A DNA stretch of 63,356 nt, filler included. It is 8 parts of 8 records of this genome, joined end to end, with 100 filler letters (N's around TTAATTAATTAA, not from the genome) between each part and the next. Parts side by side here need not be neighbours in the genome. Positions count along the whole stretch, not along the records: positions 12,615 to 25,726 come from SRR31147125_17331; 7 more parts are not named here. One strand, written 5' to 3'. The number at the start of each line of letters is the position of its first letter. Positions within the stretch are counted from its first letter, which is position 1. The position numbers and the translations under genes were made by a program. The notes under the pieces are model-generated. The model ran no database searches. It was given only the letters and a program-made list of their open reading frames with translations, and was not told the DNA's origin. Positions 12,515-51,517 of the stretch are shown in pieces.

Positions 12515-12614
12515 NNNNNNNNNNNNNNNNNNNNNNNNNNNNNNNNNNNNNNNNNNNNTTAATTAATTAANNNNNNNNNNNNNNNNNNNNNNNNNNNNNN
12601 NNNNNNNNNNNNNN
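12515..12614. other. Artificial contig linker
   Basis: N44-TTAATTAATTAA-N44, which has stops in all six frames. Confidence 0.99.
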
Positions 12615-12857
12615 TTTACTCTGTATTAAATTAATCTGGTGTTTTTTTTAAAAATGTTGTAATATATAAAAGGTCCGGCAAGCACTTGTTTTTTTCAGGT
12701 CTATGATTTGAAATAAAATAAGAGCTTTTCGGGCCTTGCTGTGTCACATTCAATTTGAAAATAATAATCAATTTACAAAGCGAATTAATAAATTTGTCAT
12801 AGTCGCTTTTTCTATCATTAAGAATATTTGTTTAACACAACATCAAGAGGTTCATTT

Positions 12858-14057
12858 ATGTCTGGTCGCAAGTTGCAATTGTTCATTTTTTTGTTTTTTA
12901 TTTCTAGTCTTAAAGTCAGTTCACAAACTCTTATAAAAGGACCATATGTCCAGAATATACAAAAAGATCGTGCGACCGTTTGTTGGGTCACGCAAGAGTC
13001 TGTTGTGAAATTTGGCGAAAAAGCCAATTTACTTGATCGTAGTTCAGATGAGTTTCAGGTTCATGAAATAGTTCTTGATAACCTTAAACCGAATACAACC
13101 TTTCATTATGATGTTGGATTTGGGAAAAAAGGGAATGGTTCTTTTAAAACAGCCCCGGAATATGGTGAATCTTTTCGATTTGTTATCATTGGTGACACCC
13201 GTTATGCTGATAAACCACGGGACGTTCAGGCCAAACTGATTAGCGCTATTGAAAAACAGAAACCTGCGCTTGTGATAAATACCGGAGATCTGGTTACAAG
13301 TGGACATAATACTCTACATTGGGATACTTTTTTTAGTATGAATAAAAGTTTGTTAAAAACCGTACCCTATTATGTGAGTCTTGGTAACCATGAAGAAAAT
13401 TCACCTTATTTCTACCAATATTTTTCATTCCCGGAAAAAGAAAATTACTACTCTTTTAATTGGAGCAATTGCCATTTTGTGGTTTTGGATTCAGAAGGAC
13501 CTCACGATTCTCCCGAGTTTCCTATGGATTATCAGGCGCGTAAGATGCACCAGGAAAAAGTCGAGACTTTTTGGGACGATCAGCTTACGTGGTTATGCAA
13601 TGACCTGAAAAATCATCGCGAATATGATTTTACCTTTGTTTATATGCATCAGCCATTGTTTAGTCTTAAGGATTCCCGTCGTGAGGAACAAAAAGAATTT
13701 CAGAAACGTTTCGCTCAGATATTTAGCGATTTTGAGATTGATGTCGTTTATTCGGGTCATGATCATAACTACCAGCGGCATTATGTGGATCCGGTTCATT
13801 ATGTTGTAAGCGCCGGTGGCGGTGCCAGTCTTTATGGATTTGGAAAACCTTTTGCCAAATATACGCGAAAATTAGCCTTGAAACATCATTATGTTCTAGT
13901 GGAAGTCGATGGCAAAAAATTAAAATCCACTGCGTTAACTGCAGATGGTGAGGTGCTTGATCAATTTTCTATTCCATTCGATAATAAAAAAGATAAAGCC
14001 CGTGCGAATAAGGAACTAAAATTAAATTCAGAAGGTACATATGATACCTGGTTTTAG
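12858..14057 (+). CDS. Exported metallophosphoesterase (purple acid phosphatase-like, FN3-type N-terminal domain)
   Basis: GDTR, TGDLV, LGNHE, MHQP, SGHDH metal-binding motifs; signal peptide; GPYVQ N-terminus. Confidence 0.9.
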   Translation: MSGRKLQLFIFLFFISSLKVSSQTLIKGPYVQNIQKDRATVCWVTQESVVKFGEKANLLDRSSDEFQVHEIVLDNLKPNTTFHYDVGFGKKGNGSFKTAPEYGESFRFVIIGDTRYADKPRDVQAKLISAIEKQKPALVINTGDLVTSGHNTLHWDTFFSMNKSLLKTVPYYVSLGNHEENSPYFYQYFSFPEKENYYSFNWSNCHFVVLDSEGPHDSPEFPMDYQARKMHQEKVETFWDDQLTWLCNDLKNHREYDFTFVYMHQPLFSLKDSRREEQKEFQKRFAQIFSDFEIDVVYSGHDHNYQRHYVDPVHYVVSAGGGASLYGFGKPFAKYTRKLALKHHYVLVEVDGKKLKSTALTADGEVLDQFSIPFDNKKDKARANKELKLNSEGTYDTWF

Positions 14058-14122
14058 AAAGGCTATATATTCAAAAGATCGAATGATGAAAAAGTAATAT
14101 GTTAAATGAGATGGGTTAAAGA

Positions 14123-15193
14123 ATGAAACAGAAACAAGAAACGAAACAAGTAATACGTGGATCAATATCGATGAGTGCTTTTTTCTGTATGGTGCTATTT
14201 TGTAAGATGTTACCATTGCCATTGTTTTCTGCTGATACCCCATCGCAGGAAAAAGTCGGGATGCCTAAAATCGCTTTTGAATCGCTTGTTGTTGATGCCG
14301 GCGTTTTTAAACCGGGTGAAAAGGCTATAGGGGAATTTATCGTAAAAAATGAGGGGGATGCCGATCTTGTTATCAAAAGAGTTGCTCCTACGTGAGGTTG
14401 CACAGTGGCTGAGTATGATAAGGTCATTCCGGCTGGTCAGTCGGGAAAGATAACAGCAAGTCTGGATACAAAAAAGTATCGTGGTGAACTTGAGAAAACC
14501 ATTATCGTGATATCCAATGATCTGAAAAATCCAAAGGCAACAGTTACCCTGCAATGCCGGGTTCTTGGTATTAAGATTTTACCTGCTGCCAGAGCTTATT
14601 TTAATGCACAGGCAGGCAGTGCAAATACAGAAGAATTGACATTAGCGACAATGGGAGAAGGTCCTTTGACCATTTATACAAAATCCAGCAATCCAAATGT
14701 GATTGTCAAATTGGAGAAATTAACAGATAACGCGCGACCAGAGTCTGACACAGAATATTGGCAGCAATATAAACTTTTGGTTACCATTCCTGAAAATTTT
14801 CCTGATGGACGTTTCGCTGGTAAGGTGACATTAGTAACAGATAGTATGTATGATCCATCAGTAAGTATTCCTGTTGCCGGTATGGTTCACCCAAGTGTGG
14901 TCGTGTCTCCCAAAAAGGTAAGAATGCCTGTTGACAAGGATGGAAATATTATGTCACGAATAATCAGGGTGACAAAAAAACATGGCACTTCCTTTAAAAT
15001 ATCAAAATTGATAACCGAACCAAAAGCTTTGAATGCCGAGTTGAAAGAAACCCAAAAGGGTAAGCAGTATACAATCACGCTGAACTGGATTGAGGCTGCC
15101 TCGTCTAGTGTCAATAAAGGTAAAGTTGTATTATATACTAACGATAAGAAAATGCCGATCATCACAGTGCCTGTAGCGGTTTATAGGCGTTGA
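14123..15193 (+). CDS. Exported DUF1573/Ig-like domain protein with in-frame TGA (candidate selenoprotein, T-U-G-C-T)
   Basis: ORFs 14123-14395 and 14405-15193 are in the same frame. Read-through gives F.VKNEGDADLVIKRVAPT(TGA)GCTVAEYDKVIPAGQSGKI, matching the DUF1573 pattern N.G...L.I..V..sCGCT......I.PG..G.I. Confidence 0.8.
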
Positions 15194-15309
15194 GTCAATG
15201 GTGGAGTAACATAAGCTTTTGAACAGATTTTGTTTTACTCTTTATTTTCTAATATGATAACAGACATTCCTTTCGTTTATCAGAATATACTATTATTCCG
15301 GAGCCTTTC

Positions 15310-16023
15310 ATGCAAATTCTCAAGAATCTTTATCAGGTTGGTGGTAGCCTGAATGGCGTTACAAGTACGATATTGGCAGATCCTTTTGATGATGGTAATG
15401 TTTATGTGCTCGACCTTAATGAAGAACTTGTCCTGTTTGATTGTGGTAACGGAGAAACACTGAAACAAATTCTAACCAACATGGAGTATTGGGGACTTGA
15501 TGTAGAAAAAGTGTCAACTTGTTTTCTCACTCATTCTCATTGGGATCATGCTGGAGCAGCTCACCTGCTTAAAAAGCGCAATATCAGCCTCGTTGCACAT
15601 CCGGTTGCAGCTGAGGCTATTGCATGCGGAGATGAACGGTGCCAGGGATATCTGTATCATAAAGAATTTGTACCTTGTGAAACAGATAAAACGTTATTTG
15701 ATGGTCAGAGTCTCAAAATGAATGGTTTAAAAATTCAGGCACGCCATTTCCCTGGCCATACCCTCGGTTGTACAGCATTTTGTTTTGAGTGGGAGGGTAA
15801 AAGGGTGGTTGTATCCGGAGATATTATCGGTACATTGGGATATGGTTATTTTGGCTGGGATGGATCATTTGATTTTGATAAAAAAGTGTACCTTCAATCT
15901 CTGACACAATTTGCCAAACTGGATTTTGATATCATGCTACCCGGACATGGTCTCATCTATTTTGATGGACCCAGGCGTCGGATTGAAGAAGCTCTGAATG
16001 AAGCTTTGATACAATGGCGATAA
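15310..16023 (+). CDS. MBL-fold metallo-hydrolase
   Basis: FDCG, THSHWDHAG, PGHT, SGD and PGHG motifs. Confidence 0.9.
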   Translation: MQILKNLYQVGGSLNGVTSTILADPFDDGNVYVLDLNEELVLFDCGNGETLKQILTNMEYWGLDVEKVSTCFLTHSHWDHAGAAHLLKKRNISLVAHPVAAEAIACGDERCQGYLYHKEFVPCETDKTLFDGQSLKMNGLKIQARHFPGHTLGCTAFCFEWEGKRVVVSGDIIGTLGYGYFGWDGSFDFDKKVYLQSLTQFAKLDFDIMLPGHGLIYFDGPRRRIEEALNEALIQWR

Positions 16024-16246
16024 GGAACATTCTTTGCTTAACATGGCAAGTTTGCTTTATTTTATTTGTGATATTAATGTAGTAATAAATTAAAGATCCC
16101 TTATGGATAGGGAATAGGGATGTTGCTCACCAGGCCTATCATCTAATTGATCAAACAAAAAATCTCCTCTCTTTTAATTATAAAAGCAAGTTATCTTAAT
16201 CAAGTAGACAAGTCAGGGAAAAATGCTATGCAATTGTCATGGCTGT

Positions 16247-16290
16247 CTGACATAGTGACAGTCAGATATTGTTAACTGACAATATGGCAG
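16247..16290. promoter_or_regulatory. Two 15-bp palindromes, putative activator sites upstream of hsp20
   Basis: CTGACATAGTGACAG (16247-16261) and CTGACAATATGGCAG (16276-16290). Confidence 0.55.
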
Positions 16291-16380
16291 ACAACTTAAA
16301 GAGTTATTTTCATATAGTAATATTGGCCTATCTTATTGTAAGTGTAATAAAAATATATACATGAAAACTGGCTAAAAATT

Positions 16381-16397
16381 TTGGCACAACTCTTGAT
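16381..16397 (+). promoter_or_regulatory. Putative sigma-54 (-24/-12) promoter
   Basis: TTGGCAC-AACTC-TTGAT, with canonical GG-N10-G spacing, about 65 bp before the ATG. Confidence 0.6.
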
Positions 16398-16461
16398 ACT
16401 GTTAAAAGTGAAAAAGATAAAAATTAAAATAAACACTTGAATATTTATCAGGAGGTTCGAT

Positions 16462-16905
16462 ATGTGGTTAGTAAGACGTAATTATGGTTATAATGATTAT
16501 ACGGAATTTGTTAATCGATTTTTCAGTAACTGTGAAAATTATGATATAAATAAAGACAAGGCTCTTGAGCAGGATTCTGTTGTTTGGAAACCAAGAATGG
16601 ATGTTAATGAGACTCAGGATGCTTATAATGTTATCGCTGATTTGCCCGGGCTGGATAAAAAGGATATTAATATAACCCTGCATGACAATGTTCTGACCAT
16701 CGAAGGTGAACGAAAGAATAATGTCGAAAAGGAGTCAAAAGATCGCTATTACTCGGAACGAACGTATGGCAATTTCTCCAGATCATTCTCTCTGCCGAAC
16801 AAGGTTAAGGATAGTGATATTAAGGCACAGTACAAAGATGGTGTGTTATCTGTGACAGTGCCCAAATCAGAAGACGCGAAACCAAGGGAAATCGAAATTA
16901 GTTAA
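16462..16905 (+). CDS. Hsp20/alpha-crystallin small heat-shock protein
   Basis: PRMDVNE, ADLPG, LTIEGER, ERTYGNFSRSFSLP, AQYKDGVL and the C-terminal IEI motif; AGGAGG SD. Confidence 0.95.
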   Translation: MWLVRRNYGYNDYTEFVNRFFSNCENYDINKDKALEQDSVVWKPRMDVNETQDAYNVIADLPGLDKKDINITLHDNVLTIEGERKNNVEKESKDRYYSERTYGNFSRSFSLPNKVKDSDIKAQYKDGVLSVTVPKSEDAKPREIEIS

Positions 16906-16915
16906 GACTCCTCTG

Positions 16916-16946
16916 AAAAGCCTCCTTATTTGAGGAGGCTTTTTTT
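16916..16946 (+). terminator. Intrinsic terminator
   Basis: AAAAGCCTCCT/AGGAGGCTTTT stem with a T-tract. Confidence 0.85.
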
Positions 16947-17169
16947 ACCTACCTGATAAACAGGTTATAATCCTGTTTACCTTCTTTTTTTCTTCCAATT
17001 TTTAACAAAATAGTGTATCTTGAATGACGCAAAGGAGTGTTATCTCTAAACTCTGCTTTTAATGATCCTCGACCTCTTTTATTTGTTTTATATTTCTCAT
17101 CATAGCTGGCCATTCATGTTCGTTTGAGTAAATCCTTTAGCTATAAATCTCTATTTGAGGCAAAAAGAT

Positions 17170-18573
17170 ATGCAAAATTCACCTTATTCCAGCAAAAGCC
17201 AATTGGTTCGACGGCAGTTTTTAAAAAAAATGACCTGTGGATTAGCAGGTTCAGTTGTTCTGGGTTCTCAGTTATTTTTATGCAATAAGAAACGACCGAC
17301 TCCAACTCGACCGAATATTGTTATTATGGTAGCTGATGATGCGGGATGGCACGATGTAGGATATCATGGTTCGGAGATAAAAACGCCCAATATCGACCAA
17401 CTCTTGAAAGCAGGTGTCGAGTTAAATCAATTTTATGTTTATCCTACCTGCTCACCCACAAGAGCATCTCTTTTGACAGGTAGGCCTCCCAGCAGATTTG
17501 GAATTTTAGGGCCTATTGGTGGAAGAAGTAAACTCTCTTTACCCAAAGAAACAGATACTTTGGCATCGATGCTGTCTAAAAATGGTTACCGTACAGCTAT
17601 AACCGGCAAGTGGCATCTGGGATTACGACCTGAAGTAGGTCCCCGAAGCTATGGCTTTGATTACACTTATGGTTATCTGCACGGACAAATTGATCAGTAT
17701 ACTCATTTTTACAAGAATGGGGATAAAAGCTGGCATCGGAATGATAAATTTATTACCGAAGAAGGGCATGCTACAGACCTTATCACAAAAGAGGCTATCA
17801 GGTTTATTGAAGAATCAACAACGCATGACAAGCCATTTTTCTTATATGTTCCCTTTAGTGTACCGCATTATCCTCTTCAGGAAGAAAAAAAGTGGACGAG
17901 TCTTTATGACAATGATATAGAAAATGAATCCCGGCAATTATTTGCTGCCTCGGTAACGCATATGGATGACGCTATTGGTAAAATCATGTCCACCCTGAAA
18001 AAAGAAAAGTTAGATAATGAAACTCTGGTACTTTTTATGAGCGATAATGGTGGTCAGGAAAACTGGTATCCTGATCAGGAATATAATAAACAGCATGGTC
18101 CAAACGATCGTTTGGGGGATAATAAACCCCTGCGGGATTGGAAAGGCAGTCTTTATGAAGGTGGAATACGAGTTCCTGCTGTTATGGCATGGAAAAGCAT
18201 ATTGCAGCCAGGCAAGGTTCAGGATGTCATCTCTGTTTACGATGTATTACCGACACTGGCTCATGTCTCTGGATCCACAATAACGTCGGATATGCAGGTA
18301 GAAGGTGAAAATATATGGTTTCTCCTTACAGCCAATACAAAAATAAAAGACCGTACACTTTACTGGCGCACCTCCGGGCAACTTGCTCTACGAAAAGGGG
18401 ATTGGAAGCTTGTTCATTTAGGTGTAACTCCTGAACAGGGAAAGAGTGAACTGTATAACATCGCCAACGATCCACTTGAAAAAAAGGATGTGGCCAAGGA
18501 TTATTCAGATATCCTTACAAAATTACAGAGTGAATTGGTACAGCATTACAAAAAAGATAAAAAAATGTCCTAG
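17170..18573 (+). CDS. Arylsulfatase (S1 family, Cys-type), Tat signal
   Basis: RRQFLK Tat motif; PNIV..ADD, CSPTRASLLTG, GKWHLG, SDNG, EGGIRVP. Confidence 0.93.
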   Translation: MQNSPYSSKSQLVRRQFLKKMTCGLAGSVVLGSQLFLCNKKRPTPTRPNIVIMVADDAGWHDVGYHGSEIKTPNIDQLLKAGVELNQFYVYPTCSPTRASLLTGRPPSRFGILGPIGGRSKLSLPKETDTLASMLSKNGYRTAITGKWHLGLRPEVGPRSYGFDYTYGYLHGQIDQYTHFYKNGDKSWHRNDKFITEEGHATDLITKEAIRFIEESTTHDKPFFLYVPFSVPHYPLQEEKKWTSLYDNDIENESRQLFAASVTHMDDAIGKIMSTLKKEKLDNETLVLFMSDNGGQENWYPDQEYNKQHGPNDRLGDNKPLRDWKGSLYEGGIRVPAVMAWKSILQPGKVQDVISVYDVLPTLAHVSGSTITSDMQVEGENIWFLLTANTKIKDRTLYWRTSGQLALRKGDWKLVHLGVTPEQGKSELYNIANDPLEKKDVAKDYSDILTKLQSELVQHYKKDKKMS

Positions 18574-18654
18574 ATCGAAAAAAAGTGTATCACCATTTAT
18601 GTGACTTTTATCTGTAAAAATCAATAATCTTATTTTTAAAATAAGGAGTGACTA

Positions 18655-20079
18655 ATGAATACGGAACGGCGTGATTTTATAAAGAACTTGGGTAAGGTTA
18701 GCATAGGTCTTTTTGCCGGAACCTCTTTTGGTCACATGCTATCCGGTTGTTCAGGCGATGTACAAAAGAAAAAATTAAATTTTGTTTTTATTCTTGCAGA
18801 TGATTTGGGTTGGAACCAGGTCGGATATCATGGTACAACTTTTTATAAAACGCCAAATATAGATCGTCTGGCTAGAGAAGGTATGTCATTCACAGACGCC
18901 TATGCTGCTTGTCCTGTATGTTCGCCGACAAGAGCCAGTATTATGACTGGTAAATATCCGGCCCGTCTTCACCTGACTGATTTTATCGCAGGTAATCCAT
19001 TTCCATGGGCTAAATTAAAACAGCCCGAATGGACTAAATATCTGCCACTTGAGGAAGTTACAATCGCTGAAGTTTTGAAAAAAGAAGGCTATGTGACAGG
19101 ATGTTTTGGTAAATGGCATCTCAGTACAGACAAAAATTACAAACCCGGTCGGCCATTTGATCCTGATTCGCAAGGTTTCGATGATATTCTGACAACAGTC
19201 AAGCCAAAGCGAGACGCGGATCCGGATAAAGATGCGCACCATGCCAGGGAGATTACGCAACGCGCACTGGATTTTATGGAAAAGAATACAAATAATCCAT
19301 TTTTCCTGTACATTCCCCATCATGTTGTGCATACTCCGCTTATGGAGAATAAAGATGTGATTGGAAAATATCAGGCAATATCAAGTTCCGATCTGCCTGA
19401 GAATAACCCGATTATGGGCGCCATGATTGAAACAATGGATAAAGGTATCGGTCAGGTTTTACAAAAAATTGATGATCTGAAACTCACGAATAATACAGTT
19501 GTTATTTTCTTTTCAGATAACGGTGGTTTGGAATCCAAACAAGACCAAAAGCCATTGCGAGGTGGAAAGGCAATGGTGTACGAAGGAGGTATACGCGTTC
19601 CTTTTGCAATTCGTTGGCCGGGTGTTGTAAAAGCGGGTAGCGTTTGTCATGAACCCGTAACAAGTACAGATTTTTTCCCAACTTTAATAGAGATTGCAGG
19701 TTTAAAATGTGATATCCCGGATATCGATGGAAAAAGTATCCTTCCTTTACTAAAACAGGATAAGAAATTTTCCCGTGGAGCGATTTATTGGCACTATCCC
19801 CATTATCATACCTCTGGTAAAGCGCCATCCGGAGCTGTTCGTAAGGGGGATTATAAACTTATAGAATGGTATGAGGACAGTCTTCTGGGTGGAGACAAGC
19901 CCTATTCACTTTATCATATCACAGAAGACATCTCCGAAGAGAACGATCTGGCCCAAAAAATGCCGGAGAAAACAGCAGAGCTTGCCACAGACCTCCGGGA
20001 ATGGCGTTCAAGAGTCGGTGCACAGGAAATGCGGTCAAATTCGGATTATAATGCAGAAAAAGAAAATAAATCAAAATAA
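18655..20079 (+). CDS. Sulfatase (S1 family, Cys-type), Tat lipoprotein signal
   Basis: RRDFIK plus LSGC; CSPTRASIMTG, GKWHL, SDNGG, YEGGIRVP, YWHYPHY. Confidence 0.93.
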   Translation: MNTERRDFIKNLGKVSIGLFAGTSFGHMLSGCSGDVQKKKLNFVFILADDLGWNQVGYHGTTFYKTPNIDRLAREGMSFTDAYAACPVCSPTRASIMTGKYPARLHLTDFIAGNPFPWAKLKQPEWTKYLPLEEVTIAEVLKKEGYVTGCFGKWHLSTDKNYKPGRPFDPDSQGFDDILTTVKPKRDADPDKDAHHAREITQRALDFMEKNTNNPFFLYIPHHVVHTPLMENKDVIGKYQAISSSDLPENNPIMGAMIETMDKGIGQVLQKIDDLKLTNNTVVIFFSDNGGLESKQDQKPLRGGKAMVYEGGIRVPFAIRWPGVVKAGSVCHEPVTSTDFFPTLIEIAGLKCDIPDIDGKSILPLLKQDKKFSRGAIYWHYPHYHTSGKAPSGAVRKGDYKLIEWYEDSLLGGDKPYSLYHITEDISEENDLAQKMPEKTAELATDLREWRSRVGAQEMRSNSDYNAEKENKSK

Positions 20080-20225
20080 ATCCAGACTGATACTCATTTT
20101 GCGAAAATGAAATTTAGATTAAAAGATATGATGTACATATAGTTCTGTTGTTTTTGTTAACATATTTCAGAAAAACTGGCTATAGTATTAACGGATCCGG
20201 TGTGAAAAATATAAAGGAAAAAATT

Positions 20226-22269
20226 GTGAAACGTTTTATGTTAATTGTGTTTGCACTATTCAATGTGAGTTTTGTTTATGCAAGCGATGTATTTCTCTTT
20301 GAAGAGGATTTTTCCGGATATAAAACCGGTCTTTTTTCGAGTGGAGTCGTAGGTGCTCATGCGGAATATCACTACATCCATGAGGTCGCTCCAAAAGGCA
20401 ATTGGGTGGTCTCCAGTTTCAGGAGCAATGGTTCTCAAAGAGCCTGGCGCGTTTTGAAACAGGAAGATGCTTCTCAACTGATGTATCAGTCCTATACATC
20501 CTCGAAAAATGAAAAAATATACTCATCCCATGATCGTGGCTGGTGATGATTTGTGGCAAGATTATACAGTATCTGTGAATTTTTCTCCGGAGTCAAAAGA
20601 AGCGCAAAGTGGATTTGTATTTCGTTATCAAAATGACCGGTGTTATTATTTTGCTGGTGTTGATGGGCCTAATGCCATTCTGAAAAAAGTAAAGCACGCG
20701 TCTGCTTATCGTTCTGCTAATGAAACAATATTAGCAAAAGCGGCTCTTGACTGGAAATCCGGCGAATGGATTACGGCTTCTGTGACGGTAACGGGACATT
20801 TTATCCGCGTCGATTTCGGGCATGGTACTGTATTGGAAGCAAACGATGATACTTTTACCAAAGGCAAAATAGGTCTTTTATCAGACATTCCAACAAAATT
20901 TAAATCTGTTAAAGTCACGACAACCCTGACTGAGCAGAAAAGGTTGCAGGCCGAAAAACGTCGTTTGGCGTTAGAATTAGCCACATTACGTGCCGGGAAC
21001 CCAAAGCCTGTGTTGTGGAAAAAGATCCAAACCGATGGATTTGGAGTTGGTCGTAATGTTCGGTTCGGCGATCTGAATGGTGATGGTCAGATCGATGTAC
21101 TTATTGGACAGGTCAAACATCATGGCCCCAAGGATCGGAATAGTGAATTGAGCTGTTTAACTGCCATGACGTTTGATGGTGATATTCTCTGGCAAATCGG
21201 ACAACCGGATCTCTGGAAAGATATGCTGACGAATGATGTGGCATTTCAGATCCATGATATTGACAATGATGGTCGAAATGAAGTTGTTTACTGTATGGAT
21301 ACGAATATAATCGTTGCTGATGCCGCTACCGGCAAAACCCGATATCAGTCACCTACACCTGTAAATAAATCCGGTCCTCCTCATGACGCTTTTCCTCGTA
21401 TTCTGGGCGATTGTCTTTATTTATTTGATAGTCAGGGAGCAGGATATGACGGAAATATTCTGATTAAAGATCGCTATAAGAACTTTACTGTTTTGGATCA
21501 TAAACTGAATGTATTATGGGAAGGCTCCTGTAAAACAGGACATTATCCGTTCGCTTATGATGTTGACAACGATGGTAAAGATGAACTGGCTATAGGATAT
21601 TCTCTTTTTGATGATGATGGCACCATGCTGTGGAGTTTGGATGACAAAATTAAAGATCATTGTGATGGAGTGGCTATTGTTAATTATTCGGGAACAATGC
21701 CGGAAAAGCCGGTTATAATGAATGCAGCCAGTGATGAAGGAATGATTTTTTGTGATGTCAATGGCACAGTACTCAATCATTATTATTTGGGTCATGTGCA
21801 AAATCCGGCCGTTGCCGATTTTCGCCGTGACCTTCCGGGGCTGGAAACAGTTTCCATTAATTTTTGGGGAAATCAGGGAATTGTGCATTATTTTGATGCC
21901 AATGGTGATCTTTATTATGATTTTGAACCCTGTCAGCATGGCAGTATGATGTTACCAATAAACTGGACAGGAGAGCCGGAAGAATACTATGTATTATCAG
22001 CGAATGTGGAAGAAGGCGGCCTGTTCGATGGATGGGGTCGCAAAGTGGTTGAATTCCCTGGAGATGGCCATCCGGATCTATGTTATGCTGTGCTGGACAT
22101 AACCGGGGATTGTCGTGACGAGATTGTCGTATGGGATGCCGGAGAGATGTGGGTTTACACTCAGGATAACAATCCCAAAAGTGGAAAACTTTATAGACCG
22201 ATTAGAAATCCTCTCTATAATTATTCTAATTATCAGGCCACTGTATCCTTACCCGGTTGGTCTGAATAG
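20226..22269 (+). CDS. Exported rhamnogalacturonan lyase (PL11)-like / FG-GAP-repeat protein; frameshift in A-run 20512-20517
   Basis: Signal peptide from GTG 20226; Ca-binding repeats DLNGDG, DIDNDG, DVDNDG, DITGD; GHY and DHCD motifs. One added A fuses the two ORFs. Confidence 0.6.
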
Positions 22270-22500
22270 ATGCGCTAACAATATTTTCAGATTATCTTTT
22301 TTGATCAGTAGCTGATCACTTTATGGATCCACCAGAGTTTAATAAAAGAATAGAAAATGCCCTCATTTCTTGTGAGATTAGAGGGCGTGGATGCTTTATA
22401 AAAAGCTGTAAATAGTTCATCAGCAAGTGTTGCTTATTATTATCAGATATGTCAGACAAAAGCGGGTGCGAGCCAGATATTTTTTAACGGGAAAAATGAA

Positions 22501-23178
22501 ATGATTGGAACAATAATAAATGTAATCGCTGTCATACTTGGATGTGTTGTCGGTCTGCTGATACATTCCAGACTATCAACCAGATTTATTTCGATTATTT
22601 TTCAGGGCATAGGACTTTTTACCTTTTCCCTCGGTATTTCTATGGCGATAAAGACAGAACATTTCCTGATTTTGGTTTTTAGTATTGTGATAGGAGCCGT
22701 TTGCGGCGAATGGCTGGATCTGGAAAAACGGTTGAATAATTTTGGCGATTATGTAAAAGTAAAACTGAAATCTGAAAGCCATCAATTCACCGAAGGCATG
22801 ATCACAGCTTTTCTCCTCTTTTGTGTAGGTTCCATGACTGTTCTTGGTGCTATTGAAGAGGGGCTTGGAGGCAAGCCGAATCTATTGATAGCCAAATCCG
22901 TTATGGATGGTATTGCTGCTATAGCATTAACCTCGTCAATGGGGATTGGTGTTATGTTTTCAGTGATTCCATTATTGATTTATCAGGGAGGATTGACTCT
23001 ATTTGCCAGCTTTTTCGAAACCATTCTTAATGAAGCTGTTGTACTTGAACTGAGTGCTGTTGGGGGATTACTTTTAATCGGTCTGGGGATTAATATCCTT
23101 GAGATAAAAAAGTTGAAAATAATTAACATGTTGCCTAGTCTGATCATTGTGGTGATATTAGCGTTTATATTTTTATAG
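22501..23178 (+). CDS. DUF554 family membrane protein
   Basis: MIGTIIN, FCVGSMTVLGAIEEG, AKSVMDG, YQGGLT and NMLPSL motifs. Confidence 0.9.
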   Translation: MIGTIINVIAVILGCVVGLLIHSRLSTRFISIIFQGIGLFTFSLGISMAIKTEHFLILVFSIVIGAVCGEWLDLEKRLNNFGDYVKVKLKSESHQFTEGMITAFLLFCVGSMTVLGAIEEGLGGKPNLLIAKSVMDGIAAIALTSSMGIGVMFSVIPLLIYQGGLTLFASFFETILNEAVVLELSAVGGLLLIGLGINILEIKKLKIINMLPSLIIVVILAFIFL

Positions 23179-23296
23179 GCCGGGAAGGCAGGTGGGATTT
23201 GATGAATATGTTCTGCATTTATAATGCATGCAGACCTAAATTGGATTTCAGTAAAATAAAAGAAATAAAATTATAAATATATTGTTTCTAAAAGAG

Positions 23297-23417
23297 ATAA
23301 GTCCAGCGGGGTTGTAGGTTTAATTGGTATAGCCGCTTTGTATTGCATCAGTTTGTAGAGTCATCAATTTAAACACACCTGACGAGATAATTCTCCCAAA
23401 CTCCCCGCTGGATTTAT
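23297..23417. repeat. Inverted repeat (14/15 bp) enclosing about 90 nt between convergent genes
   Basis: ATAAGTCCAGCGGGG (23297-23311) / CCCCGCTGGATTTAT (23403-23417). Confidence 0.75.
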
Positions 23418-23538
23418 ATTTTGGGGCTGGATTTTTAAGGGGTAATAAATTCTTCTTGTATAAATTTATCCTGATATTATAGGTCTAACTTGATATTATA
23501 TTAATGAGTTAGGCGATATTTACCCTTTCAGGTGGAAC

Positions 23539-25301
23539 TCACGTTTCAGATCCATTGTTTTCTTTATCAGAGTTTTCATGACCATTTTTCACCCACATGA
23601 ACTTTCTTTGTAATGTGGCTGAATAGTAATTATCCAAAACATCATAGTCCACTTTTTTTCCCCACTCGTGAAAAACGCGCGGATCAATATACGATTTTTG
23701 GCTTGTTCCAAGGTTCCAGGTTCTGTTTTTTGGGCAATGGCCATTTGTGCCTTTAATTTCCCCAACTGAACCCGTGCTTTTTCCTGTCTTTGTTTAGTGG
23801 TCTCGATTCGACGTTTCATTGCCTCAATACGTTTCTGGTAGCGTACCCGGATTTTTTTCTGCTTATCCGATTTAGTTTCAGCCTTGATTTTTTCTTTTGA
23901 TTCAACCCGTAAATCTTTGAGTTTTTCGGTAAATTCTTTCTGCTGTACTTTGTATTTTTCGATTCGTTCTTTAATGCGTTGTTCTCTTTCCTTGTACCGC
24001 TGTTTTCTTTCAGACCAGTTAGTTGGCGCTTGTTTTGTATGATTGCATAAAATCGCTGCTTCTGTATTTGCCTTGGTTGCTGCTTCCCATTTTCTGTATT
24101 CCGGATCATCTTTAACGACATCAGAGCTCTCCAGGCTTTCTCTCACTGCTTTGGAAGCATGGTGAGTACGGAATACCTTGGCTGTTAAACCGGGCATAGC
24201 TTCAGACAGGAAGGAATTTACGTTTCGACTACTGACATCAGGAAAAAGTTGTGGTTTGTTATGAGCAGGATGGTTTCTCTTGTTTTTACCACTTCTGGAT
24301 GGTCTGGCATTTTCAATTAGTTCTTTCAGGTTTTTCTGAACCTGTTCAGAGAGTTCGATCTTTTTGTGCCATAAAACCGAATCCTTACCCAAAAACCTGA
24401 ATTCAGCTGTGCCATTGTTGTGCAGTTTAATATGTTCCGGTCTGAGTGTGGTTGCACCTACCGTATCCGCTTCATCCGGATCTTTTTCATCACCCACTCT
24501 AAGACAAAGTATGTCAATTAGGTGACAGGCTGTTGCGATTTTTCGGATTCGTGCTTTTTCGTTTTCAAGACCGGCTCTGATATGCTCCTGAACCTGTTCA
24601 ATGTTCGAATCCAGTTCAGTTGCTTTGTCAAATTTTTGCGCCTCCCGTTCCTGTTTGATGGGCGCCGTATCATGCAGCCAGATATATTTTAACTTGTTGG
24701 ACAATTTGTCATCCCAGCGGGCTACCCAAAGTGAATCGGGCTGCCAGACGATTTCATTCCATTCACCAGGAGGGGTGGGAGCGTCAGGGCTCAGGTTCAA
24801 GGTAATATCCGATTTTTGGGCCCCTTCTTTCCAGCGTCCTCTAAGAGGATGTTTGCCACGCCCCATAAAGATACCGCTGGGTTCTACGAGGTAATTGGCT
24901 AATTCGATTGTTTCACCGTTTGCTATGGCTGTTCCGTATTCCTCCTTCAAGGCTTCCCGTATCTCTTTCCGTTGTGCAGCCAGGGCTTTACGATCTTCCT
25001 TACTCATCCGTGCTTTTGCTTCCCGTTCGGCAATAACTATATCATGAACCTGTGAAAAATCGATTTCACTTATAACCAGTGTTTTTCTATATCCCAGTTC
25101 TTTGCTGAAATCAGTTAGGAAATTTCGAATGAATACGGAATCTTTTACATATGGAGTACCTAATTTTTTTGCCCATGCAAGAGCCATCTCCTCCTGTTTA
25201 GGCGTAAGCTTTACTTTTTCATCCTTGATGGATATGCAAAGCCCCTGATATTCGGGAGGATCTGGTACAATGACGCCTTTGTGAATCAATTGTTCTAACA
25301 A
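23539..25301 (-). CDS. DNA topoisomerase IB, large eukaryote/thaumarchaeal type; frameshift in A-run 23726-23731
   Basis: HKGVIVP, EPSGIFMGRGKHPLRG, LRVGDEKD, DTVGATTLR, FLGKDS, LTAKVFRT, ILCNH and a coiled-coil linker. The shifted frame gives WNLGTSQKSYIDPR (catalytic Tyr at 23689-23691) and a stop at 23539. Confidence 0.93.
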
Positions 25302-25726
25302 TTTCGTTCTTTTCCTTATTTAACGTTCCTGTAAATTTGAATCCATGAACAACGAGCAATGCTCATGTTTTTAAATATCAAGATGATGAAGAAATATTTT
25401 GCCTACAAATTTAATACCTAAATAAATCAAATCATATAATAAATTGAATTTTTACTAAAATTGCAAGATATTCTTTATTAATTATACGTTATTGATTAAA
25501 TATGAGGTATTCCATTGAGTGTTACTATTTCGGGGCCCTGTTTTGTCGTGGTTGCAAAATATTATGGAACTCCATGTTTTGTAATAATTAAGAGATGTTT
25601 TCTGGTGATTTGTATCGCATACGGTTTTACTTGATTTTAGTGCTTTTTATAAGTAAATTTATATTTATTTTATTCCGGGGTCTGAATAAAACTAGCCAAC
25701 AAATGTAGCTAGTCGTATCAAAAAAA

Positions 25727-25826
25727 NNNNNNNNNNNNNNNNNNNNNNNNNNNNNNNNNNNNNNNNNNNNTTAATTAATTAANNNNNNNNNNNNNNNNNN
25801 NNNNNNNNNNNNNNNNNNNNNNNNNN
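25727..25826. other. Artificial contig linker
   Basis: N-TTAATTAATTAA-N. Confidence 0.99.
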
Positions 25827-26836
25827 GATGGTCTGGCCGCCGCATTCATGGTCGGCCGTAACCACGATAAGGGTTTCATTGGGATGTTTTTTGTAAAAAG
25901 CCACAGCCTCGGCAACGGCATCATCAAAGGCAATGGTATCGTCAATAGCCGCCCTGGCATCATTGGCATGGCAGGCCCAGTCAATCTTCCCCCCTTCAAC
26001 CATCATGAAAAACCCGTCAGGGTTGTCCAGAAGCCGGATCCCCTCCCGGGTAAACCGGGCAAGGGAAATGCCGTTGGCGGGCCGGTCCAGTTCATACCAC
26101 ATGGCCCCGGTTTCTCCGCCGGCATCCTGGAGATTGTCCCGGGCGATGACCCGGGTTCCGGGGTCCTGGGCCTGGAGGGTGGCCAGATCCTCGGTGATGA
26201 TAAACCCGTTATTTTTGGCCCTGGGTTCCACATCCGAATCATTGTCCTTGTTCCAATGCCCCCCGGCAAAATAGTCAAAATCAGAATCGGCCAGCTGCTC
26301 GGCAATCTCATAATAATTTTTCCGGGTGGCGGTGTGAGAATAAAACACAGCCGGGGTGGCGTGGTTGATGGTAACCGAAGAGACAATCCCCACTTTCATC
26401 CCCTTTTCTTTGGCTTTCTCGGCCAGGGAATTATAGGGTCTGGTGGTGGTGGGATCCATGGAAATTACATTGATATTGGTTTTCATGCCGCAGGCCAGGG
26501 CCGTACCTGCAGCAGCAGAACCGGTGATCAGGCGATTGTTGGCATAGGTAGTGGTCATCCCCTGAACCGGAAACCGGCTCAGGGTTAACAATTCTGCTTT
26601 TTCCCCCCGGCCGCGGCATCGTCCTGCTGGAGGGCGGCCAGGTAGGCTTCTGCCGCATGGATCTGGACGCTGGCCATACCGTCACCGATAAAATAAAACA
26701 GATATTTGGGGGCAAAGTTGCTCCGTTTGGCACCCTTTTTCGGGGCAGCAAAACCGATTGCCGCACTCAGGGTCAGGCAGGTCAGGCAGATCGCTGCCAG
26801 ACGTCCGGATTTGATCATAAGACGTAAACACCTCAT
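25827..26836 (-). CDS. Alkaline phosphatase PhoA family (3' truncated; frameshift in homopolymers at about 26597-26608)
   Basis: Signal peptide, FIGDGM, ITGSAAAGTALA, HATPA, MVEGGKIDWACH, TADHE. Confidence 0.9.
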
Positions 26837-27217
26837 TTTTCACGACTCCTCATATTTAATTCAATTACGGGTATTGGATAAAACAAACGGTATAAACCAC
26901 AAAATTGACTGGCCTTTTGGGTTACCACCTCCTTTCCTTTGAGCGGCCGGGCCTTTGATAAAAAAGCTTTTGTGCGGATCCGGCCACCTGCCTTCCCGGA
27001 GGAAGGCCCGAAAGAAAGATATGTCCGGAAACCTGAATGAACTGGCCTGCAATTGGGGGCACTATATAGGTCGGACGCTTGTATCCGATTAGCCAAATAA
27101 AAGGAAATGATTTGGATGATGACAAGAGCCCCCTCACGGTTTTAGTCCTTGACAGGATCTTGGAGATCTCATAGATTGCCTCAAAAAATTAGGAAAACCA
27201 AACAAGAAAGGATATCC

Positions 27218-28213
27218 ATGGCGTCCCAGGGATTGCCCCGGCAGGACCGGCCCGGACCTTCACAAATTATCACAGCCATGCCCTCTGACACAGAACCGGG
27301 ACAGGACCGAAACATAAATCTGCGCCCGGGAATGAGCCTGGTCTTTACGGATTTCACCACCACCGCCCCCTTTGAAACCCGGGTGGCAGAAACCGCCGCC
27401 CCCCTGGAATTCTGCTTCTGCCTCAAAGGCGGTGTCCGCTGCCTGGTCCCCGACCTTAAGGAAGAATTTGAAATCACCAGGGGACAGTGCAATATCAGCT
27501 TCTTCCCCACCCAAGAGGCATGATGGCCTTTCCCCCATCATCCAGGATTCACTTTTTGACCCTGCGCATCACCCCCCAGGCTCTTGAACAGATGCTCAAA
27601 AGCTGTAAAGCCCCCTGCCCGGAGCGCTCACACGGATCGCCCAGGGCCGGCCCGCTCTTTTTTCAAGGCCGGTCCCCCTTCGGCCGCCATGGAAATGGCG
27701 GTCCACCAAATCGCCAACTGCGCCTATTCCGGCCAATTTGCCGCCCTTTATCTCGAAGGCATGGCCATTGAACTTCTGGCCCACAGCCTGGATCTGCTGG
27801 CTGCTGCCCCCAAGCCAGAGCCGAATCTTAGTGCCAGGGACATGGAACGGATCAGAGAGGCCCGGCATCTTCTGGCCCAGGATATCCTGAATCCCCCTTC
27901 CCTGGTGGAACTGGCCCGGAAGGTGGGAATCAATGATTTTAAGCTTAAAAAAGGATTCCGCCAATTGTTCGGCACCACGGTATTCGGGTTTGTCCACCAC
28001 CGGCGCATGGCCGATGCCCGGCAGATGCTCCAGGACGGCCGTTTCAATGTGACCGAAGTGGCCGGTGCCGTGGGGTACACCAATCCCAGCCATTTTGCCG
28101 CAGCCTTCCGTAAACGCTTCGGGATTAACCCCAGTGCACTTCTCACAGAGGCCCGCCGGAATACTTCCGGAAAAACAGCTGCCCGGGTCGGGCATCATCC
28201 GTCCCGGGGCTGA
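27218..28213 (+). CDS. AraC-family (PchR-like) transcriptional regulator, at least two frameshifts
   Basis: C-terminal PPSLVELARKVGINDFKLKKGFRQLFGTTVFG...VGYTNPSHFAAAFRKRFG. The N-terminal parts lie in ORFs 27149 and 27487. Confidence 0.85.
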
Positions 28214-28278
28214 AAAAATCCGTTTCAGGGTGGTGAATATCCGTGTCCTGGACTATTCAGTTAGGCCAACCTTATAAT
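28213..28278 (+). promoter_or_regulatory. Putative AraC-activated promoter with tandem direct repeats
   Basis: ATCCGTTTCAGG (28218) and ATCCGTGTCCTG (28239) are 21 bp apart; TGGACT at 28249-28254 and TATAAT at 28273-28278. Confidence 0.6.
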
Positions 28279-28302
28279 TCTTTATAAAAGGAGAAATTTT
28301 AG

Positions 28303-30428
28303 ATGAAACCAAGACCATGGGGCCTGCTTTTGGCAGGCCTTCTACTTCTGGGTACGGGGTCCCAGGGGATGGCAGCCTCCCAGACGCCGGCCCAAAAGGA
28401 CGGGCACACCCTTGAATCCATTACTATAACAGCGGAAAAACGAAAGCAGAACCTCCAGGAAGTCACAAACAGCGTCACCGTGCTTTCGGACCTTAATATC
28501 GAGGATGCCGGCATTAAATCCACCTTTGACATCCATTCCCAGGTACCCAACCTCAGGAGCTTTGAAACGGCCAGCCGGGTCTACTTCAGTATATTCAATT
28601 TCAGGGGCATCGCCAATACGGCATTCGGGGATCCGGCGTTCACCCTTTATATAGATGATGTGCCTGCCACGGATTTTTACGATTTTAACAACACCCTTTT
28701 TGATATCCAACGCATTGAGGTGCTCAGGGGCCCCCAGGGCACATTATACGGCCAGAACACCGAAGCCGGGGTCATCAACATTATTTCCAAAAAACCGGGA
28801 AACACCCTTGAGGGACGGGTACAAACGGAAATCACCAATTATGCCGGCCGGGAAATTTCTGCAGGCATCCGGGGGCCCATTGTCCAGGATAAACTCTTTT
28901 TCGGTTTTTCAGGCCTGACAGGAGAACGGGAGGGATATGTGGAAAACATCCACACCGGAGAAGATGTGGACAGCCGAAAGACCCTCAGCGGCCGGGGCCA
29001 GCTCAGATGGACCCCTCCAAAGACCTGGACCTCATGCTCACCCTTGCTGGAGAAGACTTTGATGACGGGGGATGGTCCTACCTGCCCCAGGATAGAAACG
29101 CCTATGCCCAGATGTTCGGCAGCCCGGATATCGGGGAATTCCAGACATGGACCGACCACAGGGGCAAGGCGGACCTGAGCCGGGACAGCCAGGCCCTGAG
29201 GATTTCATGGGATCTGCCCGGCATGAACCTGGTTGCCGTGACCGCCCGGAAACATTTAGACAGCCAGGATACATTGGACGGAGATTTTACCATCCAGCCC
29301 ATGTTTATCGGCTTTAACCGGAACAAGACCACCCATTGGAGCCAGGAAATCCGTCTGGCCTCGGCAGATCTCGGGGCCCCCCTCTCCTGGATTATCGGGG
29401 GGTATTACAGCCATAAGGATGCCCGCTGGCTCACCGGATATCAATCCGATATGGACAACGGGTTCGGCCAGGGCCTGCCCAAAGGGGTGCGCCAGGAATA
29501 TGATGCCGATTTTGAGGCCAAAACCTATGCCGTATTCGGGAAAGCAGGGTACCGCTTTTTTAACCAGGCACTGGGGATCAACGCAGGCCTCCGTTTTGAA
29601 CAAGCGGAACGGGCCATGGAGCGGGATATCCGCTTTAATAACCTTCCCACTGCCCCCCATGTGGATGATGAGCAGAAAAACCGGGTCATCCTGCCCAAAA
29701 TCGCCCTGGACTACAGGTTCACCCCTGATATCATGTGCTATACCAGTGCGGCCAAGGGATACCGGGCCGGGGGATTCAGCCATGCGGTCAGTGACCCGGC
29801 ATATGTGGCATTTGACCCCGAGACCATCTGGACCTATGAACTGGGTGCCAGGACCACCTGGCTCAACCGCAGGCTCATGGTCAACCTCACTGGATTTTAT
29901 TCGGATGTAAAGGATTTCCAGGATTCAGTCCACCTGGACCCCATGACCGTGATCCAGACCAATGCGGCCGAAGCCGCCATCTGGGGCCTGGAAGCGGAAA
30001 TTTCCTTCCGCCCCGTTGCAGGCCTGGACATCACAGGCTCCCTGGGATGGATCAATGCCCGGTATGAAGATTACAGGGAAGATGCCACGGGAAAGGATTT
30101 CAGCGATAATAAGGTCATCCAGACCCCGGAATGCGAATATAACCTGGCGGTCCAGTACCGGTTCCCCTGGGGTCTCTATCTTCGGGCCGAGGCCGACGGC
30201 AATACCGGGTATTATTTTGACCGGGCCAACCAGTACGACCAGGACGGGTATATCCTTTTCCACGCCAAAGCCGGCTTTGAGACGGAAAACTGGGATATCA
30301 CCTTTTTCGGTTCCAACCTGGGGGACAAAGAATACCACCTGGCCGGAAGCGAAATTGCCCCGGGCCTGATCATGGGCAATGTGGGTGCACCCAGGACCCT
30401 GGGCTGCACGGTCAGCTACCGGTTCTGA
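28303..30428 (+). CDS. TonB-dependent receptor (siderophore/metal type); frameshift in C-run at about 29012-29015
   Basis: Signal peptide, TonB box LESITITAEK, RIEVLRGPQGTLYG, GYRAGGF, C-terminal PRTLGCTVSYRF. Confidence 0.92.
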
Positions 30429-30444
30429 TAGGACCAGCCCAATA

Positions 30445-30489
30445 AAAAAGCCGGGAAGGACTGCCCATAGGGCGCCTTCCCGGCTTTTT
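30445..30489. terminator. Bidirectional terminator
   Basis: AAAAAGCCGGGAAGG/CCTTCCCGGCTTTTT between convergent genes. Confidence 0.85.
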
Positions 30490-30523
30490 CATTTTCCTCA
30501 GTGGGAAACCATAAGGGTATATC

Positions 30524-30886
30524 TTATATCTTTTTTCTTCTACCGACTCCGGCCAGGCCTATAAGTCCCAGACCGAAAAGAGCCATTGTGGCGGGTTCCG
30601 GTACTGGGGCATTGGCAAGCCCCAAAAGCCCTTCACCCATGGACTCTAAATTGGCACCGGTCACCGATGGTGTATAATCGCCCCCCTGAATCCAATTGAT
30701 CAAAGCAGTTGAATCATAAATCCCGTAAAGGCTCTTAACATAAGTGGCATATCCTGTATCCTGCCATCCGCTCAGAGGCGTCTGCAGTAAAACATTCAAG
30801 GCCTCTTGTTCCAGATCCTTTTCATCTGACGTGCCATTGTTAAGGATATCACCGAAAAAGGAGGCTTCGAGCACGCCGACAATTCC
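30524..30886 (-). CDS. PEP-CTERM sorting-domain protein (5' truncated)
   Basis: C-terminal VPEPATMALFGLGLIGLAGVGRRKKI. Confidence 0.92.
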   Translation of the reverse strand, partial: GIVGVLEASFFGDILNNGTSDEKDLEQEALNVLLQTPLSGWQDTGYATYVKSLYGIYDSTALINWIQGGDYTPSVTGANLESMGEGLLGLANAPVPEPATMALFGLGLIGLAGVGRRKKI

Positions 30887-30986
30887 NNNNNNNNNNNNNN
30901 NNNNNNNNNNNNNNNNNNNNNNNNNNNNNNTTAATTAATTAANNNNNNNNNNNNNNNNNNNNNNNNNNNNNNNNNNNNNNNNNNNN
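30887..30986. other. Artificial contig linker
   Basis: N-TTAATTAATTAA-N. Confidence 0.99.
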
Positions 30987-37220: not shown

Positions 37221-37320
37221 NNNNNNNNNNNNNNNNNNNNNNNNNNNNNNNNNNNNNNNNNNNNTTAATTAATTAANNNNNNNNNNNNNNNNNNNNNNNN
37301 NNNNNNNNNNNNNNNNNNNN
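37221..37320. other. Artificial contig linker
   Basis: N-TTAATTAATTAA-N. Confidence 0.99.
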
Positions 37321-44593: not shown

Positions 44594-44693
44594 NNNNNNN
44601 NNNNNNNNNNNNNNNNNNNNNNNNNNNNNNNNNNNNNTTAATTAATTAANNNNNNNNNNNNNNNNNNNNNNNNNNNNNNNNNNNNNNNNNNNN
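44594..44693. other. Artificial contig linker
   Basis: N-TTAATTAATTAA-N. Confidence 0.99.
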
Positions 44694-50460: not shown

Positions 50461-50560
50461 NNNNNNNNNNNNNNNNNNNNNNNNNNNNNNNNNNNNNNNN
50501 NNNNTTAATTAATTAANNNNNNNNNNNNNNNNNNNNNNNNNNNNNNNNNNNNNNNNNNNN
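50461..50560. other. Artificial contig linker
   Basis: N-TTAATTAATTAA-N. Confidence 0.99.
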
Positions 50561-51445: not shown

Positions 51446-51517
51446 ATAAAAATCCATTCCTTTCACTATAACTACCTGTAGCACAAATAGTCATGGAAAT
51501 AAATTTTCTCACATTGA

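Follow-up and report, generated by a model that had tools for sequence, protein, structure and literature searches.

We report here a gene for a long-form DNA topoisomerase IB (TopIB), found on the minus strand of a metagenomic stretch of 63,356 nucleotides (hereafter the window, meaning the whole stretch that was analysed). Taken jointly, the comparisons make it highly probable that this gene encodes an intact, functional enzyme of a KSB1-type or related bacterium, that the frameshift which divides it in the deposited sequence is an assembly error, and that the protein belongs to a bacterial clade whose nearest kin are the Asgard archaeal enzymes. The gene is real and probably intact, and within a large bacterial clade of long, Asgard-like TopIB enzymes it is an ordinary member. 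An earlier reading of the window made from its letters (the sequence-only reading) had proposed a eukaryote- or thaumarchaeal-type enzyme on a bacterial contig, interrupted by a frameshift and explained either by transfer between domains or by an overlooked bacterial clade.

The open reading frame (ORF) that covers most of the gene (minus strand, 25301..23589) has 570 amino acids, starts with MLEQLIHKGVIVP and contains HKGVIVP, QEEMALAWAKK, EPSGIFMGRGKHPLRG, LRVG, GKDS, KVFRT and CNH, and its end is out-of-frame, unrelated text. Translation of the three minus frames over 23800..23450 gave, in the neighbouring frame, NRTWNLGTSQKSYIDPR... / NRTWNLGTSQKSYIDPRVFHEWG..., closed by a stop codon at 23541..23539. 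Frame A supplies 525 residues (ending in AIAQK at 23727) and frame B another 62 (23727..23542, the first being Asn), and the resulting 587 residues carry every motif quoted by the sequence-only reading, which had given this same length once the frameshift was repaired. Base 23727 is shared by both frames; hence, exactly one base is absent from a run of six A residues (T6 on the plus strand, 23726-23731).

Pfam recognises all the parts of a long enzyme except the linker, which was taken from a structural model (Table 1). The protein has the PF02919 cap, matched over profile positions 5-213 of 213, the PF01028 catalytic core with its Arg, Lys, Arg and His, a linker and a C-terminal domain bearing the catalytic tyrosine in the motif SxxxY(I/L)DPR. 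The codon for this tyrosine, Tyr538, is out of frame in the deposited sequence and in frame in the contigs of two sequencing runs, X1 and X2. NCBIfam offers no model for the protein, and its sole match was a weak coiled-coil one.

The frameshift is most likely an error of the deposited sequence, because the contigs of both runs carry one more T. In a search of sequencing runs, X1 contained 0.99 of the sampled words and several other runs small shares; no RNA run was among those listed. The X1 contig (Logan, 22,201 bases, depth 34.1, in one piece) spans all of 23300-25500 with 0 substitutions, its single difference being a T inserted behind 23725 at a depth of 34.1 of 34.1. The contig from X2, which is another sample from another study and represents a relative about 91% identical, spans 23543-25484 with 166 substitutions in approximately 1,940 letters and has the same extra T at 2.99 of 2.99; runs X5 and X6 contributed no more than short or diverged fragments, which belong to other organisms. 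The closest database protein, P0001 (587 residues, intact, on a 73-kb contig), reads across the break in one frame as AIAQKNRTWNLGTSQKSY. The two window frames are collinear with P0001 with 37 differences over 587 positions (94% identity), frame B is open and identical to it at 56 of 62 positions, and in an alignment of 42 sequences the window protein departs from none of the 71 invariant and none of the 81 near-invariant columns. As a separate observation, short homopolymers are also where four further gene pairs of the window overlap (Table 1), as might arise from similar assembly frameshifts.

Several points nevertheless weigh against an assembly error. The X1 and X2 data are contigs and not raw reads, and contigs drop rare variants; X1 is probably the source run of the window, so that this sample is not independent of it; and a T6 subpopulation or a real recent mutation may exist. 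A real frameshift, leaving either a fresh pseudogene or an inactive 570-residue protein devoid of the C-terminal domain and the catalytic tyrosine, would agree with the six bases, instead of seven, in the deposited run and with the room that a contig-based comparison leaves for a variant. We regard it as improbable, given that X1, the probable source run, shows the extra T throughout the depth of its contig, that no further defect was found (no departure at 152 conserved columns, and an open frame B) and that other genes of the window are likewise split at homopolymers; the pseudogene that the sequence-only reading had named as fatal to its proposal is also contradicted by the uninterrupted frame of P0001. 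The alternative that the cell itself bridges the break, through programmed -1 ribosomal frameshifting or through transcriptional slippage on the A run, is barely credible. Six A followed by C can slip, the in-frame context being CAA AAA ACA, but read in the zero frame the site departs from the canonical X XXY YYZ heptamer, the contig of the source run has seven bases, and P0001 as well as the complete reading frames of related loci encode the protein in one frame. The frameshift is thus most likely an error of the deposited assembly, or at most a minority variant, at a homopolymer, and the gene is most likely not a pseudogene.

At the start of the gene, the ORF call places a TTG codon at 25299-25301 with AAGGAAAAG some 12 bases upstream, and relatives begin at the same residue as the window protein (ML.QL.H). 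No outstanding sigma-70-like promoter was seen in the AT-rich 425 bases upstream of the TTG, and a scan for promoters and terminators gave nothing in excess of shuffled sequences (4 found against 6.2 expected). At the other end, most bacterial copies (the C-termini of L001-L047) finish in a short acidic tail; that of the window (23539-23580) reads ENSDKENNGSET, and in the model of P0001 the tail is disordered (predicted local distance difference test, pLDDT, below 50 at residues 580-587).

Short TopIB enzymes have approximately 270-350 residues and a small N-terminal domain, a description that the 587-residue window protein does not fit. Those of Deinococcus radiodurans (2F4Q/3M4A) and variola virus (2H7G) share with it a homologous catalytic domain and its chemistry, but they are without the Topoisom_I_N cap and without the linker, both of which the window protein has. 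About 240 columns align in structure (TM-score, TMq, 0.26-0.30), and the Deinococcus enzyme is matched by phmmer at 2.7e-4, whereas the matches to Caldiarchaeum and human TOP1 are full-length; the earlier assignment to the long form, as against the short bacterial and poxviral one, is therefore upheld.

The best match of solved structure is CsTOP1 of Caldiarchaeum subterraneum (PDB 6Z01/6Z03; PMC8748870, PMC4824112), with a phmmer E-value of 1.9e-128 (6z01) and, for P0001, a Foldseek E-value of 5e-48 at 42-43% identity. CsTOP1 and the window protein are alike in domain order, in having no long N-terminal tail and in their catalytic residues; the global TM-score from Foldseek is low because the crystal is in an open form. 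CsTOP1 has Asn before the tyrosine (LRNYI), where the window protein has Ser. An AlphaFold2 model of P0001 built from the 42-sequence alignment (pLDDT 90.9, predicted TM-score 0.81) builds the linker from two long helices (429-474 and 478-526). This model and the closed human TOP1-DNA complexes (PDB 1K4T, 1A36) share the fold, coiled-coil linker included, with TMq 0.74-0.75 over 585-587 columns, and the human enzyme has the same catalytic pentad and a phmmer E-value of about 6e-68. Identity to eukaryotic TOP1 is nevertheless approximately 30-35%, and the eukaryotic enzymes form a separate clade. Their rows are of at least 920 residues against 587 in the window protein, in which, judged by length, the long charged N-terminal domain is absent, and they read CCS and LNY or INY where the window protein reads ATT and KSY.

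The columns of R268, K306, R378, H421 and Y538 are conserved in all 94 aligned rows and the residues are present in the window protein. We take them to be human R488, K532, R590, H632 and Y723, respectively. The residue immediately before the tyrosine is Ser in 31/31 bacterial, 16/17 Asgard and 11/11 Bathyarchaeia rows, and Asn in 14/14 eukaryotic rows and in one Nitrososphaeraceae row. The sequence-only reading had likened this Ser to the human N722S change, which confers camptothecin resistance. According to PMC8748870, CsTOP1 is camptothecin-resistant with its LRNYI; placing the human KLNYL in it did not create sensitivity, and exchanging its linker and C-terminal domain for the human ones did. 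Since the Ser is common to bacterial, Asgard and Bathyarchaeia rows and the Asn-bearing CsTOP1 is resistant anyway, the residue is a mark of lineage with no sign of drug selection, and the reading as an adaptation to camptothecin was rejected.

A search for protein homologues returned 7,177 matches at E <= 1e-10 among 8,000 scored candidates. Of the 120 best listed, P0001 comes first, and the remaining 119 all have the full three domains, with 575-739 residues and 61-72% identity; eight of the 120 listed are named by organism, six as 'candidate division KSB1 bacterium' and two as 'bacterium'. Public annotation already calls the proteins from KSB1 metagenome-assembled genomes (MAGs) 'DNA topoisomerase I'. 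In a collection of species-representative genomes, 570 of 600 matched stretches encode relatives. By record label, the best 80 of these 570 comprise 39 Chloroflexota-type loci (on contigs of up to 5.2 Mb), 5 KSB1, 1 Calditrichota, 4 unclassified bacteria and 31 archaeal loci, the latter divided into 16 Asgard, 12 Bathyarchaeia and 3 unclassified. The closest non-bacterial relatives among these 80 are Asgard enzymes (labelled Hermod-, Hod-, Prometh-, Thor- and Heimdallarchaeota), at 49-54% identity.

The distribution of the long form was followed by a whole-genome search for its N-terminal domain family, PF02919. The GTDB phylum of the KSB1-labelled locus L001 had the family in 43/167 species genomes; these were concentrated in the order of G001, G002 and G003 (GTDB, labelled KSB1), where 39/43 species genomes were positive with one match each, leaving 4/124 for the rest of the phylum by subtraction. 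The Anaerolineae-type class of G004 had it in 79/401 sampled genomes, and 14 well-known control genomes had none. A type IA topoisomerase (PF01131) was found in 5/5 of the TopIB-bearing bacterial genomes tested. A single match of the GyrA/ParC type was found in 5/5 TopIB-bearing and 5/5 TopIB-lacking genomes of the KSB1-type phylum, so that a link between TopIB and the lack of topoisomerase IV was dropped for want of contrast. As type IA and GyrA/ParC-type enzymes are present alike, TopIB appears in this small sample to be an addition that does not track the loss of another topoisomerase.

Phylogenetic trees were built at two levels of care. The quick tree (94 rows x 576 columns, LG+G4, supports from the Shimodaira-Hasegawa approximate likelihood ratio test, SH-aLRT) contained the window protein, its break marked by X, and P0001, together with ORFs taken at 59 of the 80 loci, 14 eukaryotes identified by name and 19 cluster representatives, including one of Heimdallarchaeota and one of Nitrososphaeraceae; 4 loci with ORFs shorter than 500 residues were left out and 17 Chloroflexota rows were thinned. 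The careful tree had 53 rows x 578 columns and was inferred under LG+C20+F+G4 by posterior mean site frequencies (PMSF), with supports given as ultrafast bootstrap (UFBoot)/SH-aLRT. In the quick tree, Bacteria form one clade (99), divided into a KSB1-type branch of 10 rows that includes the window protein and P0001 (99) and a Chloroflexota branch of 21 rows (99), and Bacteria with Asgard form another (100); Eukarya (100) lie on the other side, in company with the Nitrososphaeraceae sequence and the rows joined to it. The careful tree recovered Bacteria (100/99), the KSB1-type branch with the window protein (100/99), the Chloroflexota branch (98/97), Bacteria with a group of Hermod-, Prometh- and Hodarchaeota (92/70), Asgard with Bacteria (100/99), these two with Bathyarchaeia (100/100) and Eukarya (100/99). 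The Asgard enzymes are thus of one clade with the bacterial ones (100/99) and mostly share the Ser before the tyrosine (16/17 rows); they differ in host domain, the bacterial sequences forming a clade of their own (100/99). The clade of the window protein is nearer to the Asgard enzymes than to the rows with the Nitrososphaeraceae sequence, CsTOP1 itself being outside the trees.

On these trees, the bacterial enzymes stand beside or inside the Asgard ones, and given any root outside the Asgard-plus-Bacteria clade they would derive from archaeal diversity. Two points count against pressing this further: the trees are unrooted, so that the direction of transfer is inferred, and holding the 13 named Asgard rows together was not rejected by the approximately unbiased (AU) test (delta lnL 0.88, p-AU 0.258), so that a position inside Asgard is not established. 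The ratio of nonsynonymous to synonymous substitutions (dN/dS, Nei-Gojobori) was 0.11-0.14 in 4/4 bacterial pairs and 0.06-0.13 in three Asgard pairs. The sequence-only reading's suggestion of an overlooked bacterial clade is borne out by this clade and by the genome counts for PF02919, and the window protein falls within it, with Asgard affinity, and not with the short bacterial TopIB enzymes. Its suggestion of inter-domain transfer stands in part: the position among archaeal enzymes fits an old transfer, but the nearest non-bacterial sequences are Asgard and neither thaumarchaeal nor eukaryotic.

Other relatives were noted in the course of these searches. The Anaerolineae-type class has a second long-TopIB lineage, L134-L138 (G206, G320, G446, G400 and G542), with proteins of 630-810 residues that start KW..LRHNGVAFPP and have much higher PF02919 scores (up to 1.4e-70); their best BLAST matches are the Nitrososphaeraceae row and other rows at 41-48%, and they form their own clade (SH-aLRT 99) apart from the KSB1/Chloroflexota clade. 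The sole relative in a collection of viral contigs, L133 (IMG/VR, 121-kb contig, 5001-6269), is 45% identical to the window protein. It groups with an archaeal-like representative (P0379) and is close also to a Bathyarchaeia row, and it was accordingly rejected as a vector for the bacterial clade. Longer forms occur as well: among P0121 and P0122-P0138 are a bacterial-type TopIB of 972 residues that carries a fused aminotransferase class V domain and intein-bearing archaeal-like TopIB proteins of 920-978 residues, and several of L014-L016, L023, L032, L036, L046, L047, L052 and L056 are bacterial copies of 730-800 residues with C-terminal extensions.

Table 1. Features of the long-form TopIB gene, of its contig piece and of the remainder of the window, in positions of the window.
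Feature	Position	Strand	Remark
Whole long-form topoisomerase IB gene	23539..25301	-	587 codons and stop, split between two frames as deposited
Frame A, residues 1-525, TTG start, MLEQLIHKGV...AIAQK	23727..25301	-	cap/DNA-binding region, catalytic core and linker
Frame B, residues 526-587 and stop	23539..23727	-	C-terminal domain with catalytic tyrosine; Pfam Topo_C_assoc (PF14370) 1.9e-13
Homopolymer at frame junction, T6 plus / A6 coding	23726..23731	.	contigs of runs X1 and X2 carry an extra T
Topoisom_I_N (PF02919), eukaryote/archaeal-type DNA-binding cap, residues 4-209	24675..25292	-	Pfam 2.4e-49
Topoisom_I (PF01028) catalytic core, residues 214-452	23946..24662	-	Pfam 1.2e-61
Linker, two long antiparallel helices, residues ~429-474 and 478-526	23727..24017	-	model of the 94%-identical P0001, collinear with the window
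Arg268 codon (LRVGDEK), counterpart of the active-site Arg in eukaryotic TOP1	24498..24500	-	alignment
Lys306 codon (GKDS)	24384..24386	-	alignment
Arg378 codon (KVFRT)	24168..24170	-	alignment
His421 codon (CNH)	24039..24041	-	alignment
Catalytic Tyr538 codon (SQKSYIDPR), frame B	23689..23691	-	alignment
Contig piece of the gene	12615..25726	.	13.1 kb, GC ~34-46%
Homopolymer overlap, TonB receptor plug and barrel	29067-29071		
Homopolymer overlap, MatE halves	45864-45868		
Homopolymer overlap, 132-residue ORF and 586-residue gene	20512-20517		
Homopolymer overlap, GH106-like gene and GH2_N2 ORF	7536-7541 and 7612-7618		
Linkers between pieces	12515-12614, 25727-25826, 30887-30986, 37221-37320, 44594-44693, 50461-50560, 58106-58205		

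Eight unrelated metagenome contig pieces, separated by N44-TTAATTAATTAA-N44 linkers (seven pairs of 44-N runs), make up the window. The pieces are from different organisms, with a guanine plus cytosine (GC) content of approximately 30% to 57%, and adjacency across the linkers is meaningless; for example, piece 25827-30886 (GC ~55%) has a TonB receptor and a PEP-CTERM protein, and piece 50561-58105 (GC ~31%) has DnaD/DnaB_2, a DnaI-like protein and HPr kinase, its replication genes being Firmicutes-like. On the piece of the TopIB gene itself are a Metallophos (calcineurin-like) phosphoesterase, DUF1573, an MBL-fold hydrolase, HSP20, two sulfatases, DUF554 and a 586-residue protein resembling FG-GAP and 3-keto-disaccharide hydrolases; an alkaline phosphatase (25827 onward) lies outside it. 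The GC content of the TopIB gene, 37-46%, is in line with that of its neighbours. For the sulfatase at 17155-18570, one relative is 90% identical, and the eight organism-named among the 120 matches listed are all bacterial, namely four KSB1 and then Melioribacteraceae, Calditrichaeota, Glassbacteria and Latescibacterota. The neighbours look bacterial and, from their relatives, FCB (Fibrobacteres-Chlorobi-Bacteroidetes)/KSB1-like, as the sequence-only reading had said of them in more general terms. That reading had also seen a sigma-54-like promoter among them. A -24/-12 element with one mismatch, TGGCACAACTCTTGA (16382-16396), precedes the HSP20 gene (16462) by about 65 bases, and such matches occur in the window at chance level (3 found against 2.97 expected), so that the promoter was discarded.

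A bacterial host appears well supported, and the relatives listed above suggest that it probably belongs to the KSB1-type phylum or stands close to it. Against this narrower assignment stand a number of results from the same piece. The closest named relatives of DUF554 are Prolixibacteraceae (55-60%) and three archaeal-labelled MAGs (62-63%), and not KSB1; the Metallophos neighbour has at most 40% identity in the KSB1-type phylum and is uninformative; no marker genes were found on the piece; and a tblastn search with nine neighbour proteins against L001-L080 gave a shared neighbourhood at 0/80 related loci. In addition, the 586-residue neighbour had no usable relative in the collection of genome contigs (1 spurious match). 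These results would agree in part with another FCB-group host, such as one of Bacteroidota, which recently obtained the gene from a KSB1-type donor: DUF554 is closest to Prolixibacteraceae, the Metallophos protein is remote from the KSB1-type phylum, synteny with related loci was not found, and a GC content of ~37-40% together with glycan-degrading genes would fit Bacteroidota. We consider such a host unlikely, as KSB1 is the commonest named relative of the sulfatase on the same piece (4/8), the 80 best TopIB loci include no record of Bacteroidota, and the GC content of the gene matches that of its neighbours. It is very improbable that the piece is of archaeal or chimeric origin and that its gene is simply a TopIB of Asgard or other archaea misassigned to bacteria, even though contigs of different organisms have been strung together artificially in the window and DUF554 has its three relatives in archaeal-labelled MAGs. 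The protein is 57-72% identical to many bacterial sequences and 46-55% to archaeal ones, it falls inside the bacterial clade (100/99), and its bacterial relatives include Chloroflexota-labelled contigs of 0.9-5.2 Mb besides KSB1-labelled contigs. The independent Logan contig spans the whole compared stretch in one 22-kb piece, and the sulfatase, DUF1573 and 3-keto-disaccharide-hydrolase-like neighbours are bacterial in type; these results speak against the possibility of an archaeal or chimeric contig, which the sequence-only reading had raised against itself.

By homology, the enzyme would act as a C-shaped clamp in which the cap and the catalytic core close round duplex DNA. Tyr538, aided by Arg268, Lys306, Arg378 and His421, would nick one strand and form a 3'-phosphotyrosyl link; the DNA would then swivel under friction from the cap and the coiled-coil linker before being resealed. 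The expected outcome, to judge from CsTOP1 and human TOP1, is that supercoils of either sign, positive or negative, would be relaxed by way of a 3'-phosphotyrosyl intermediate with no need of ATP or Mg. In its bacterial hosts the long TopIB would probably work beside the type IA enzyme and gyrase and not replace them. The bacterial clade, with its KSB1-type and Chloroflexota branches, would have its closest ancestry with Asgard TopIB and has probably been inherited mostly vertically since then. A wider proposition is put forward tentatively, and we would sooner doubt than accept it as it stands: that the KSB1 order and a fifth of the sampled Anaerolineae-type genomes have kept an Asgard-like long TopIB under purifying selection since an ancient exchange between Asgard and bacteria, in either direction.

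The enzyme class and its mechanism are known, and it is the bacterial distribution that is notable and under-described in print. In the sources consulted, the long version among prokaryotes was given for Thaumarchaeota only (PMC4824112, 2016), type IB among archaea likewise for Thaumarchaeota only (PMC8185306, 2021), bacterial topoisomerase IB was drawn as short (PMC8748870, 2022), and the large form was most recently listed for Eukarya, BAT archaea, Hadesarchaea, Gerdarchaeales and Thorarchaeia (PMC12395588, 2025). A search for literature on topoisomerase IB with KSB1 or Chloroflexota, which did not extend to subscription journals and bioRxiv supplements, found none, and in the searchable literature no description of a bacterial long form was found, bacterial TopIB being there the short form only.

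For the window gene itself little follows in practice: within its clade it is unremarkable, and its frameshift should not be taken as biology. For the family, the near-universal presence of a long form across one bacterial order, and its common occurrence in an Anaerolineae-type class, alter the distribution map of TopIB, a map that is used in arguments on the archaeal root and on 'eukaryotic signature proteins'. If the proposed ancient exchange is true, TopIB could not serve cleanly as a 'eukaryotic signature protein' or to mark the archaeal root, and bacteria would offer tractable hosts in which TOP1-type swivelases occur beside gyrase and topoisomerase IA. The finding also raises the physiological question of what a TOP1-type swivelase contributes in cells that already have topoisomerase IA and gyrase.

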